Assembly: GCA_041906885.1 (NCBI GenBank)
Contig: JAYRII010000015.1
Coordinates: 15,534-79,533, forward strand
Source: Candidatus Saccharimonadia bacterium
GTDB lineage: Bacteria > Patescibacteriota > Saccharimonadia > CAILAD01 > CAZGYV01
Length of the DNA stretch: 64,000 bases
Direction: 5' to 3'
The notes beneath the pieces were generated by a model. It was given only the letters and a program-made list of their open reading frames with translations. It made no database searches and was not told the DNA's origin. The translations under genes were made by a program, and so were the position numbers. This document shows, in pieces, positions 15,672 to 18,446 of the stretch; position 1 is the first letter of the stretch; every line of letters starts with the position of its first letter.

Positions 15672-18446
15672 CTATCTTTGAGTCAGATTTTTCAGATTGT
15701 TAAGCTTCTTGAGATTACTAATAATTGCGTCTAGGTTTTTACTGATGTCCTCTGATTTTGGCTGCGGACCAACATCCATCACTACCCTAAAAGCCATACT
15801 CTTGCGCTCAGTCGCGCTCAGCTTTTGGTCAGCAAAATCATTTAAAAAATTCGCCTTGATAACAAAGGAGTTTTTGAGTAAAGCACGCTTAATATCCTGC
15901 CAAAAAACATTATTGTCTATCTCAATTGCAATATCGCGAACGACAGGGGAGTAGGGAAGTAAATCATCAATTTTAGCCAGCTTATTATTGTCTAATATTA
16001 ACCTTATATTAACCTCACAAAAGCTTATTTCTGAAACAATTTTTAGTTCATTTAATAGACTAGGTCTGACCTGTCCATATTGCCCTATTACCTTGTCGTC
16101 CAGCTTGATGATAGCAGATCGCCCGGATATGAATTGTTTAATATCATTGGCATCAAAGCTAAAATCAAGCTGGCAAATTTCTGCTATGGCATCAATCTGC
16201 CCTTTAAGCCTAAGCAAGCTATCATTTCCAAACACTGTTAGTCCGAGTTGCCATTGCTCATCCGGTAAGCTACCGCTCTTGTTCGGTTTGTAAACTCTTG
16301 AGACCTCAAAAAACTCAAAGCTATCGCGATAGCTCTGATTGTTTGCAACCACCTGAAGATGACTTGGTAATAGAGATGTTCGTAAATATTGCTGCTCGCG
16401 CGACAATGGATTTAAGATCTCCAGATGACTATCCGTGTCCAGTTCAGTAGTTTTAATTATGTCTTCTCCAATAAACGAATAAGTCATTACCTCAAACAAG
16501 CCGCGTGCTACCAAAAATTTTTTTATTTCCAATATTCTTGGTAGTAACTGATGCTCGTCCGTTGCCATTGGTGGTAATAGTGGGGTAGTAGTAGGTAGCT
16601 TGTCATAGCCGATAATCTTAATAACTTCTTCAATCAAATCCTCCTCTAAGGCCACATCAGTTCGCCACCACGGAGTCGTCACTGCCAAAAGATGATTAAA
16701 ACTCTCAACATAACGGCGAGCACCCTTATAACCAGGATTATTAATAAAATAGCTCAGCGGCGATTCGATTACCGCTGGCTTAGCCATTTTACGTACCTGG
16801 CCGTTTTTATACTCATACTGAGCTGCATGAATTACTTTATTTTGTCCCATATAAATACCAACATGACCAATATCAGATCGTTCTTTTTGCAATTTTTTAT
16901 CAGTCCAATGGCCAGATCGAAACACTAAATCACCTGGTTTTAAATTAACTTCCTCAACCATCACTCCCGATTGAAATTGCGCATAAGCAGTCTCGCCAAT
17001 CCTTTTACCGATTAAGCTATAGATGTAGCTCGTCAGATATGAACAATCAAAGGCTTCAACACCATGCTGCTTAAAATTCGCCCCCCAAATATACGGCTTA
17101 CCAAGGTGTTTACTCAATTCCTTAGTCAGGCTAAAATGCTCGACTTCAAAACCAAGCCGCTTTAAGCCATTTACAACTCGTCTCTCATCAATCCTCATGC
17201 CCAGTACACGTTCAGCCCGACGCAAACGCAAACCAATGTGTTGCACCCAAGGCCAATCATATAATTGATCGAAGGGGCCATCAATTATCTCAGCCTGACA
17301 AATCTCTTGAAATAGTTGAATAAGACGGGGCAGTGCAATCGGTGGCAAGGACAAGGGGAGTGAACGCTCGAATCTAGCCGATGCTTCAGTTCGAAGACCG
17401 TGCCTTAAGGCTGTCTTGCGGACCAACTCTCGATCGAAATTAGCAACTTCTAGAATTATTTTGGTTGTCGACCGATCAACTTCAGTCGTCTGACCACCAA
17501 TTACTCCAGCCAGACCAATCGCACCAGACTCATCAGCAATCACAAGATCATCAGCCGTTAGCTTACGGCTAGCACCATCAAGTGTTGTAAGTTTTTCGGC
17601 AGGGGAGCCGCGCCTAACCTCTAGTCGCCCAGAAATTTTTTCCAAGTCATAGGCATGCGAAGGCTGGCCAGTCTCGAGCGCGACAAAGTTGGTAATATCT
17701 ACAACAGGGCTAATGCTCCGCAAGCCATTAGCTTCTAAGTTATCCACAAGCCACTGCGGTGAAACTATATTATTTTTCACGGCTAGTTTCACGGACATAA
17801 AACGCCTACACTCGCCTGTTTTCTTGACATTTACGTTTTCTATTGTTTTATATTGTAATGCTGGACTAGCTGGGATTTTGACACTTTGATCGAAATCGCC
17901 CGTGTATCCACTCGCCTCCCGCGCCAAACCGATCAAACTAAGTTGGTCCCACCTATTTGGCTGCGTCTTTATGTCCAGCTGATCCCCTTCAGGCCATATG
18001 TCGCACAATATTGTACCCGGCGCTATCGAGTCGTCGAGTAGCAATAGCCCGCTGTGATCGTCTGACAAACCCAGCTCGGCTGGCGAGCAAAGCATACCAG
18101 CTGACTCAACGCCGCGGATCTGAGCTGCTTTTATTGTCGTGCCATTGGGCAATTTAGAGCCAACTTGGGCCAAAACAACTATCTGATTGGTGGCCACATT
18201 CGGTGCACCGCAGACTATTTGATTATGCCTGGACTGCCCATAATCAACTGACACTAGCTTTAAGCGGTCTGCGTTGGGATGTTTTTTGACTGCAGTGATT
18301 TTAGCTGCAATGATTTTTTCGTCAAATTTATTCGAGCTTAGAATTTGCTCAACTTCAACTTCAGTCCGCTCAAGTCCTGCTACCATTTGATCGGTTGAGA
18401 GTTTTTTAGAAAGATAATGATTGATTGATTTGACGGATACTTTCAT
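15672..18446 (-). CDS. pheT: Phenylalanine--tRNA ligase beta subunit carrying an inserted NlpC/P60 (C40 peptidase) domain.
   Basis: N-terminal tRNA-binding domain ([10 protein letters not shown]), B3/4, a B5 motif LKRLGFEV and [25 protein letters not shown], and C-terminal FDX-ACB, all standard for PheT. Between the two B5 halves lie ~135 aa carrying [31 protein letters not shown]..VIHAA, a complete C40 Cys-His-His set. Confidence 0.85.
   Translation of the reverse strand: [924 protein letters not shown]

Follow-up and report, generated by a model that had tools for sequence, protein, structure and literature searches.

Aminoacyl-tRNA synthetases (aaRSs) are among the most conserved proteins known, and those of bacteria rarely gain whole foreign enzyme domains. 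In canonical PheT, the beta subunit of phenylalanyl-tRNA synthetase (PheRS), as solved for Thermus thermophilus (1PYS/2IY5), Escherichia coli (3PCO) and Staphylococcus haemolyticus (2RHS), the domains follow the order B1-B2 tRNA_bind, B3/4, B5, CLM and FDX-ACB, and the hairpin turn of B5 measures about 5 residues. Here we analyze a stretch of 64,000 nucleotides (nt) from Candidatus Saccharimonadia bacterium (assembly GCA_041906885.1, contig JAYRII010000015.1, positions 15,534 to 79,533; hereafter the window). Its PheT shares this domain order, the editing residues and the pheS-pheT operon, but carries an enzyme domain of the NlpC/P60 family, 150 amino acids (aa) long, at the B5 turn, as well as a weak FDX-ACB domain (27.9 bits).

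B5 has been described as a helix-turn-helix of "DNA binding-like" character without an assigned catalytic role (PMC3275996). In Mycobacterium tuberculosis PheRS, a small subdomain preceding CLM touches the alpha catalytic domain both directly and through a conserved Mg2+ (PMC8136816). Equating that subdomain with B5 is our own reading. In our literature search, no PheRS or other aaRS was described as having an NlpC/P60 domain, and we know of no report of the papain-like NlpC/P60 fold inside any aaRS.

The inserted domain and its host protein

The pheT gene is a single unbroken reading frame, as the sequence-only reading of this locus had stated. Its product scores 586.2 bits against the equivalog-level family TIGR00472 (pheT_bact; curated cutoff 402.65) in two stretches split by the insert, the first of which stops at residue 437. 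Pfam places tRNA_bind at residues 46-145, B3_4 at 213-384, CLM at 617-814 and FDX-ACB at 832-914, and its B5 match covers only the C-terminal half of that domain (584-614, profile positions 37-67 of 67). When aligned to S. haemolyticus PheT (2rhs_B), query residue 435 corresponds to 444 and residue 586 to 450, so that about 150 aa replace a loop of about 5 residues. The full-length AlphaFold model has B5 strand 434-438 entering the insert and strand 586-590 leaving it. The insertion site is the hairpin turn ("wing") between the last two B5 strands, a surface loop and a typical permissive site. The sequence-only reading had described a whole in-frame C40/NlpC-P60 domain, with catalytic Cys and His, splitting B5 where other PheTs have only a short loop. 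Both points are borne out by Pfam and the alignments, in which ordinary PheTs have a 3-6 residue turn; its length estimate of about 135 aa has to be raised to about 150 aa.

The inserted segment has its own N-terminal helix and a C-terminal GARRY strand, and in the Pfam scan that returned the PheT domains it exceeds the PF00877 threshold (Table 1). By sequence, the insert alone matches solved NlpC/P60 proteins (best E 1.8e-11), and its catalytic Cys and two His residues align with theirs. Modeled alone, it reaches a predicted local distance difference test score (pLDDT) of 95.1 and a predicted template modeling score (pTM) of 0.90, a confident prediction of an independent domain such as the sequence-only reading had proposed to look for. 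A Foldseek search with this model returned 64 Protein Data Bank (PDB) chains at E <=0.001, led by 7CFL (E 1.8e-10), and the best 50 of the 64 are all NlpC/P60-family structures. Among the matches are Clostridioides difficile autolysins, the diffocin hub hydrolase, MepS, LytE, CwlO and YkfC-like proteins (E 1e-10 to 1e-7, target-normalized template modeling score about 0.8). The insert is thus predicted to adopt a papain-like alpha+beta fold and, in the models, forms a separately folded globular domain with adjacent termini.

The host protein retains the complete PheT domain set: tRNA_bind (B2), B3_4, B5, CLM (B6/7) and FDX-ACB (B8). The full-length model (mean pLDDT 88.1; insert region 83-95) matches every solved bacterial PheT chain (E 1e-61 to 1e-68). 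The FDX-ACB score lies under the Pfam cutoff of 31.1 bits; the predicted fold is nonetheless present in the model. This anticodon-binding domain is divergent in Saccharibacteria PheT and is the least conserved domain of the family; it scores 62-96 bits in insert carriers outside Saccharibacteria (P0190, P0198, P0207 and others). The T. thermophilus residues Thr249 and Asn250 belong to the editing site. The roles of the other residues of this site are described in PMC3275996 and PMC8136816, and the alignment maps T249, N250, H261, G315 and E334 of T. thermophilus to T252, N253, H264, G314 and E333 of the window protein. In an alignment of 50 family members, each of the five is either invariant or conserved to at least 90%. 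Despite the insert, the PheT core and its editing site look intact at the sequence level.

The pheS gene for the PheRS alpha subunit lies 1 nt upstream, and pheS directly precedes pheT in all 69 Saccharibacteria loci in which the flank is present. No second pheT was found among open reading frames (ORFs) of at least 150 aa in the 64-kb window. The host protein is an otherwise normal housekeeping PheT of a Saccharibacteria (Patescibacteria) genome, predicted to carry out aminoacylation together with PheS.

A misassembly, a chimeric contig or a hidden frameshift could in principle fuse a peptidase gene to pheT, and the window is one single sequence; we found no evidence for such an artefact. The same in-frame junctions recur in hundreds of independent assemblies (NCBI, JGI, ENA and Logan), the B5 halves flank the insert precisely at the loop position of the crystal structures, purifying selection spans the junctions, and the structure prediction is confident across both. 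A 99%-identical protein (P0001) lies on another contig. An 86%-identical one (P0002) occurs on 13 contigs taken from the index, and the single place examined in detail has the same gene neighbors. At the insertion site, each of the 120 nearest cluster representatives has 100 aa or more, and 110 of them have a precomputed PF00877 match. The GC content is 0.39 in the insert versus 0.44 in the remaining gene. Recurrence on independent contigs and selection on the insert rule out an assembly chimera or frameshift, so that an artefact is vanishingly improbable, and it is practically certain that the insert is a real, ancient and selected nested domain.

Distribution, inheritance and selection

To define the distribution of the insert, we scanned one genome per GTDB species with an insert profile, which found 319 relatives. 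The best 80 of these comprised 69 loci from metagenome-assembled genomes (MAGs) labelled Saccharibacteria, Saccharimonadia or Patescibacteria, and 11 free-standing Clostridia proteins. When 1.84 billion cluster representatives were searched with a profile, 62 matched at E <=1e-30, and 46 of the best 150 were PheT proteins. The sequence-only reading knew of no described PheT with this architecture, which agrees with our literature search, but it is not peculiar to this genome: public databases already hold hundreds of insert-bearing PheTs with precomputed PF00877 matches. NCBI labels some full-length carriers "beta subunit-related protein" and some fragments "C40 family peptidase".

Insert-bearing PheTs of the Saccharibacteria type measure about 875-970 aa. 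The same B5 profile position is occupied in two groups of other types, namely 780-860-aa PheTs without the B2 tRNA_bind domain and 904-1049-aa PheTs. For both groups, the closest relatives without the insert carry the labels Patescibacteria, Parcubacteria, Moranbacteria or Nealsonbacteria. Junction alignments revealed one identical insertion point, at which insert-less relatives (identity up to 65-68%) have a clean 3-6 residue turn. Two of the large PheTs are P0281 (1006 aa) and P0282 (1049 aa); the insert of P0282 is bigger, with a precomputed LRAT match (PF04970) beside PF00877, and has lost the Cys motif.

In a rough neighbor-joining tree of the PheT core (corrected p-distance, midpoint root), a method unsuited to counting gains and losses, all sampled Saccharibacteria have the insert, whereas its occurrence in other Patescibacteria is patchy. 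Distances for insert and core co-vary (Mantel r 0.68; none of 2000 permutations reached this value), a pattern that fits mainly vertical inheritance of the insert, with losses. Among the 450 PheT sequences gathered, 244 have the insert, a proportion that is no population estimate since the searches were seeded with insert-bearing queries; 212 of the 244 keep the D-C-[S/G/N/A] nucleophile motif. Recent horizontal acquisition was considered and is unsupported: the GC content of the insert, overall and at third codon positions, is just mildly below the values for the remaining gene, and insert and core diverge in parallel.

One sequence is discordant. The insert of P0137 is near those of P0146, P0147, P0321 and P0330 (p-distance 0.30-0.34) and its core is far from theirs (0.61-0.65), which suggests occasional recombination of the insert region between pheT genes. 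Bacterial-type pheS-pheT with the insert also occurs on contigs labelled "Candidatus Nanoarchaeia archaeon" and "Candidatus Aenigmarchaeota archaeon" (L039, DATIHE010000064.1; P0270 and P0271, MCK4967438.1 and MCK4968484.1); L039 additionally has Saccharibacteria synteny. These are probably Patescibacteria contigs mis-binned into archaeal MAGs.

A comparison of the window pheT with that of its 86%-identical relative gave a dN/dS of 0.113 within the insert and of 0.098 over the remainder of pheT. Mean column conservation among Cys-bearing members is 0.61 for the insert, 0.71 for B3_4, 0.49 for CLM and 0.43 for FDX-ACB, and the p-distance of the insert (0.60) is slightly lower than that of the core (0.65), indicating slightly slower evolution overall. 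Purifying selection on the insert is about as strong as on the rest of pheT. Because selection on the insert equals that on the synthetase, some activity of the domain matters to Saccharibacteria and to several other Patescibacteria lineages.

Predicted activity and genomic setting

The hallmarks quoted by the sequence-only reading are all present in the insert, with codons checked: Y452, D467-C468-S469, PGDLVF, H528 and H540. The topology is that of the non-permuted P60 type, with the order Cys...His...His, and the domain has the features of P60-like NlpC/P60 enzymes, namely a non-permuted Cys and His, a polar third residue and the oxyanion Tyr. The catalytic Cys is found in 105 and the catalytic His in 106 of 121 close relatives; across a wider set of 138 insert-bearing PheTs, Cys is kept in 125, His in 126 and the oxyanion Tyr in 125. 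The third triad position of the wider set is more variable (H in 37, Q in 36, E in 22, M in 16 and T in 12), with H, Q or E in about 95 of the 138.

From a YkfC-product complex, Xu et al. (2010) proposed that Tyr226, Trp228, Asp237 and Ser239, with the triad, bind X-L-Ala-gamma-D-Glu (PMC2954226). The window insert has all four (Y452, W454, D467 and S469), with E485 and A487 at the supporting positions Arg255 and Ser257. The complete Y-W-D-C-S-H set occurs in 61 of the 138 family members. Membership of the YkfC subfamily itself was rejected. That subfamily is defined by an N-terminal SH3b1 domain whose Tyr118 pairs with Asp256 of the catalytic domain (PMC2954226); the Pfam scan found no SH3b, and the equivalent of position 256 is Thr486 (T in 109/138). 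The nearest free-standing relatives are secreted wall hydrolases of Firmicutes (Clostridia), at 40-44% identity, so the insert descends from a genuine peptidoglycan D,L-endopeptidase domain. One of these relatives combines a signal peptide, PG-binding repeats and NlpC/P60, and another is CwlO-like with a coiled coil; a Lutispora wall hydrolase among them likewise has Ala at the Ser257 position. The insert is probably enzymatically active in the lineages that bear Cys and His.

An alternative is that the insert is mainly a non-catalytic module that binds, scaffolds or senses a muropeptide or a partner, or stabilizes or regulates (alpha-beta)2, its catalytic residues persisting through inertia or ligand binding. 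This would accommodate two independent Saccharibacteria subclades (P0060/P0087/P0093, and a group including P0105, P0108, P0110 and P0117) that keep an insert of 100-147 aa without Cys and His, so that catalysis is dispensable there; P0112 and P0116 still score as PF00877. It would also accommodate the relaxed third triad position and has a parallel in known non-catalytic NlpC/P60 domains; one of these, RipD (4jxb), appears among the fold matches. Elsewhere, however, Cys and His are kept jointly in 124 of 138 members though the cores differ at about 65-70% of aligned positions, the two residues are lost only jointly, and the oxyanion Tyr persists. Once they are gone, the insert shrinks and diverges fast: in P0108 and P0114 of the P0105 group, its identity to the window is 0.23-0.26 while that of the core is about 0.47, the pattern expected of a former enzyme whose constraint has relaxed. 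Most simply, the domain is read as an enzyme selected in most lineages, with constraint relaxed after catalysis was lost, and we regard a non-catalytic module as an unlikely explanation for the family.

Where such an enzyme would act is constrained by its host. PheT has no signal peptide or transmembrane (TM) segment: its maximal 19-residue Kyte-Doolittle average is 1.3, compared with 2.5-3.4 for three of its neighbors, and its N-terminus is not hydrophobic. The Pfam scan detected no wall-binding module (LysM, SH3b, PG_binding or coiled coil). The class of secreted, wall-targeted autolysins (LytE/CwlO/P60 type) was rejected on these grounds. Lacking an export signal, the domain must work in the cytoplasm, and the insert is most likely a cytoplasmic hydrolase, as far as these sequence features go.

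We favor, at slightly less than an even chance, an explanation in which a whole P60-type NlpC/P60 cysteine-hydrolase domain entered the B5 hairpin turn of pheT long ago and has since been inherited together with pheT, leaving the PheT core and editing site intact. In most lineages, including the window, it would be a catalytically competent Cys-His(-His/Gln/Glu) hydrolase that cleaves the gamma-D-glutamyl amide bond of soluble peptidoglycan-derived peptides in the cytoplasm, serving stem-peptide turnover or salvage as cytoplasmic YkfC-type enzymes do. Its carrier would be a protein that is abundant, essential and never lost, in a genome under reductive pressure; that an essential, constitutively expressed gene offers a "safe harbour" in a shrinking genome is only a guess. 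The soluble gamma-D-Glu peptide substrate is proposed because of the residue signature, the D,L-endopeptidase descent and the YkfC precedents, and by such analogy it is a tentative assignment, somewhat short of an even chance. Among these precedents, B. subtilis YkfC is a cytoplasmic NlpC/P60 enzyme acting on peptidoglycan peptides (PMC2954226), and the YkfC homologue of the genome-reduced Chlamydia is reported to be specific for peptidoglycan-derived peptides and to leave precursor synthesis undisturbed (PMC9928106). The window also encodes alanine racemase (Alr), UppP, YkuD and a PG_binding_4/beta-lactamase-fold protein; given Alr, UppP and YkuD, the organism makes peptidoglycan.

Several observations weigh against this explanation. 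Met or Thr occupies the third triad position in about 28 of 138 members, and the Trp228 equivalent is W in just 73/138, with Y, L or F in its place elsewhere. At two positions of the active-site network the family deviates from canonical enzymes: His stands at the Arg255 equivalent in 97/138 (Glu485 in the window), and Ala at the Ser257 equivalent in 105/138. The insert has neither the SH3b domain nor the Asp256 that are hallmarks of the YkfC subtype. Patescibacteria relatives outside Saccharibacteria lack the insert at 65-68% identity, so it is not essential for PheRS. In the two Saccharibacteria subclades with a shortened insert and neither Cys nor His, the insert may have a non-catalytic role. 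The explanation also gives no reason for such an enzyme to sit inside PheT.

Another alternative is a translation-linked substrate: a second proofreading of mis-acylated or N-blocked aminoacyl-tRNA or adenylate, or transfer through a Cys468 thioester to an acceptor, for example a wall precursor. Esters are readily cleaved by cysteine hydrolases, aaRSs do host inserted hydrolytic editing domains, and here the domain is built in beside the editing module. One insertion site recurs in several PheT lineages, including those without B2, and B5, if mapped as above, contacts the alpha catalytic domain via the Mg2+ site (PMC8136816). These points are set against the conservation of all canonical B3/4 editing residues, which leaves no need for a replacement editing site; a role of the insert as a substitute for a decayed B3/4 site was rejected for this reason. 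Moreover, the non-permuted P60 topology and gamma-D-Glu-type signature are unlike the permuted LRAT-type acyltransferases, and closely related PheTs function without the insert. A translation-linked substrate is thus rather improbable, and so, by a shade more, is a hydrolase acting on the synthetase's own product, whether as a papain-like second proofreading site or by acyl-enzyme transfer on Cys468 from tRNA or adenylate to a wall precursor. If true, the former would add a new type of accessory activity to the aaRSs, and the latter would be a direct enzymatic bridge from tRNA charging to peptidoglycan peptide chemistry in Patescibacteria.

The neighboring genes bear on a further alternative, in which PheT would moonlight at the envelope: released or exported unconventionally, it would cut its own or host peptidoglycan together with YkuD and the VirB4-like cluster. 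A conserved block, TM127-pheS-pheT-YkuD-P137-VirB4-like ATPase, occurs in almost all Saccharibacteria loci (L001-L069 and L084-L087), every gene in it other than pheS and pheT encodes a membrane-anchored protein, and the insert derives from secreted wall hydrolases. We found no terminator-like site between pheT and ykuD, so co-transcription of the two is plausible. The sequence-only reading had taken the co-operonic L,D-transpeptidase, together with the insert, to suggest moonlighting or a physical link of translation to cell-wall remodelling, which is speculative. The L,D-transpeptidase argument fails when covariation is examined across the 69 Saccharibacteria loci and beyond: ykuD is absent beside about 11 catalytically intact inserts and still lies downstream of the catalytically dead insert of P0105, and two carriers outside Saccharibacteria have gyrB, or Peptidase_C39_2 and Ddl, downstream instead. 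Functional coupling of the insert to YkuD was accordingly rejected. The pheT-ykuD adjacency is Saccharibacteria synteny and tracks neither the insert nor its catalytic state. With no signal peptide, TM segment or wall-binding domain, a sacculus role is not the obvious reading of PheT, and a secreted effector is hardly to be expected of a cytoplasmic heterotetramer that is essential. We consider envelope moonlighting very improbable and retain a cytoplasmic peptide hydrolase as the preferred reading.

The conserved block holds down to about 40% PheT identity. TM127 is a 127-aa membrane protein whose stop overlaps the pheS start, P137 is acidic, about 137 aa long and without a Pfam match, and the VirB4/TraG-like ATPase is a membrane-anchored protein of 900 aa with DUF87, T4SS-DNA_transf and TrwB_AAD_bind (DUF8128 in relatives), often followed by a PKD-domain surface protein. 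The YkuD ORF as listed is 509 aa long, with a TTG start 9 nt past the pheT stop and in-frame ATGs about 20 and about 44 codons further on, before the TM segment. Its homologues measure 459-489 aa, with 36-160 nt separating pheT and ykuD, and the TTG start is probably over-extended.

Upstream of TM127-pheS lies an ORF-free gap of about 830 nt, which holds a candidate structured non-coding RNA (ncRNA) of about 490 nt. It is preceded by a perfect sigma70 promoter candidate (TTGACA-18-TATAAT) and has terminator-like hairpins. The region is 86% identical across three genomes between which synonymous sites of pheT are saturated or nearly so, and it recurs on the same strand and in the same position in about 36 Saccharibacteria loci (L084:3856-4418, L085:843-1404, L025:2533-3072, L006:2622-3023, L047:2442-2945, L087:5722-6198 and others). 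A search of Rfam 15 gave no match. RNAalifold predicted 62 pairs from a 13-sequence alignment, of which 32 show compensatory changes. Two further conserved motifs, CAGYAGGGGAA and TGGTAGGGAAG, are complementary to the motif TTCCCTACTG, a relation suggestive of alternative pairing or a pseudoknot, and the 3' end reads CGGGCC...GGCCCGTAACCA. From its conservation, position and covariation, the element looks like a structured RNA that has not been described before.

The window encodes a prephenate dehydratase (PDT and ACT domains) a few genes away from pheST and the TrpRS gene, and L084 and L086 have one in the equivalent position. A step of phenylalanine biosynthesis is unexpected here, the lineage being generally held to be without amino-acid biosynthesis. 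Among further features, the class A RNase P RNA match spans 627 nt versus a 367-nt model, which implies large insertions, and a tmRNA of about 400 nt is present. A tRNA-Pro(GGG) gene lies inside the 5' part of a DUF6879 ORF with a TTG start, and that start is almost certainly over-called. Four ORFs had no Pfam match at E <=0.001 (Table 1).

Table 1. Coordinates of features in the window (position 1 is its first nucleotide)
Feature	Position	Strand	Basis or remark
pheT ORF, PheRS beta subunit, 924 aa	15672..18446	-	single unbroken reading frame, 924 codons
B5 N-terminal half, about aa 400-435, ending in strand ...LGFEV	17142..17249	-	TIGR00472 stretch to 437; 2rhs_B alignment to 444; model strand 434-438
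Inserted segment, aa 436-585, complete NlpC/P60 (C40) domain	16692..17141	-	alignment gap versus solved PheT
PF00877 NLPC_P60 match, aa 449-553	16788..17102	-	E 4.1e-15, 56.1 bits, gathering cutoff 23
Y452-I-W454, equivalents of BcYkfC Tyr226 (oxyanion) and Trp228 (gamma-D-Glu contact)	17085..17093	-	mapping to PMC2954226
Predicted catalytic Cys468, codon TGT, motif FDCSY	17043..17045	-	aligned to catalytic Cys of solved NlpC/P60; codon verified
Predicted catalytic His528, codon CAT, motif GHVGIY	16863..16865	-	aligned to solved NlpC/P60; codon verified
Third triad residue His540, codon CAT, motif VIHAA, family-variable	16827..16829	-	codon verified
B5 C-terminal half, aa 586-614	16605..16691	-	Pfam B5 positions 37-67; aligns with 2rhs_B from residue 450
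FDX-ACB, anticodon-binding, aa 832-914	15672-15950	-	divergent in Saccharibacteria PheT
pheS, PheRS alpha subunit	18448..19440	-	tRNA-synt_2d, E 6e-89; 1 nt upstream of pheT
YkuD L,D-transpeptidase, membrane-anchored, downstream of pheT	14133..15662	-	YkuD and PG_binding_4
Conserved block, TM127 to VirB4-like ATPase	10904-19820	-	synteny in almost all Saccharibacteria loci
ORF-free gap, about 830 nt	19821-20650		
Candidate structured ncRNA, about 490 nt	20085-20585	-	conservation, position, covariation
Candidate ncRNA promoter	20617-20588		perfect sigma70 match
Candidate ncRNA terminator-like hairpins	20106-20089, 20061-20036		
Prephenate dehydratase	25289-26182	-	E 7e-60
tmRNA	39842-40240	-	
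RNase P RNA, class A	58678-59304	-	
DUF6879 ORF	62093-62800	-	TTG start
tRNA-Pro(GGG)	62640-62715	-	
ORF, 201 aa	7174-7779	-	no Pfam match
ORF, 186 aa	8785-9345	-	no Pfam match
ORF, 689 aa	29749-31818	+	no Pfam match
ORF, 668 aa	51683-53689	-	no Pfam match

Significance and comparison with known systems

A cell-wall-type cysteine peptidase is carried within an essential synthetase subunit across an episymbiotic, genome-reduced lineage. The arrangement offers a testable handle, a single Cys codon in one essential gene, with natural "dead" and "deleted" variants for comparison. The domain is a candidate for a route of peptidoglycan-peptide salvage or turnover in organisms unable to make most building blocks, and it marks the lineage of oral and environmental Saccharibacteria, for which it may also be a selective target of drugs or probes (E-64-type inhibitors).

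Among synthetases, the nearest architectural parallels are CP1 of LeuRS, IleRS and ValRS and INS of ProRS, in each of which a separately folded hydrolase is spliced into a synthetase loop and inherited with it. CP1 and INS are dedicated editing folds acting on aminoacyl-tRNA, and their likeness to the PheT insert is architectural only.

The closest fold relatives are P60-type D,L-endopeptidases, including C. difficile Acd24020 (7CFL) and Acd33800 (9UBF) and the diffocin hub hydrolase (8V3W_H), which share the fold at a template modeling score of about 0.8, as well as B. subtilis LytE and CwlO and E. coli MepS, with shared PYxWGG-like and DCS motifs and 25-30% identity. These enzymes are secreted proteins or lipoproteins with signal peptides and wall-targeting modules, whereas the window insert is nested in a cytoplasmic protein. 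The insert further differs in having DCSY and WGA in place of DCSG and WGG, His or Glu where those enzymes conserve Arg, and a beta-hairpin that is longer past the third triad residue.

With the YkfC type (B. subtilis, B. cereus 3H41 and Chlamydia trachomatis), the likeness lies in the proposed mode of action only. These NlpC/P60 enzymes are reported to act on soluble L-Ala-gamma-D-Glu-diamino-acid peptides and not on the sacculus (PMC2954226, PMC9928106), and 3H41 is among both the sequence and the fold matches of the insert. YkfC has an SH3b1 domain with Tyr118, and Asp256, which reads the free N-terminal L-Ala; the insert has neither, with Thr at the 256 equivalent.

Finally, RipD of M. tuberculosis (Rv1566c, 4JXB), a non-catalytic NlpC/P60 protein, provides a precedent for the dead subclades (e.g., P0105, P0108, P0110 and P0117). 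RipD is a secreted peptidoglycan-binding protein, whereas the window insert retains an intact triad.

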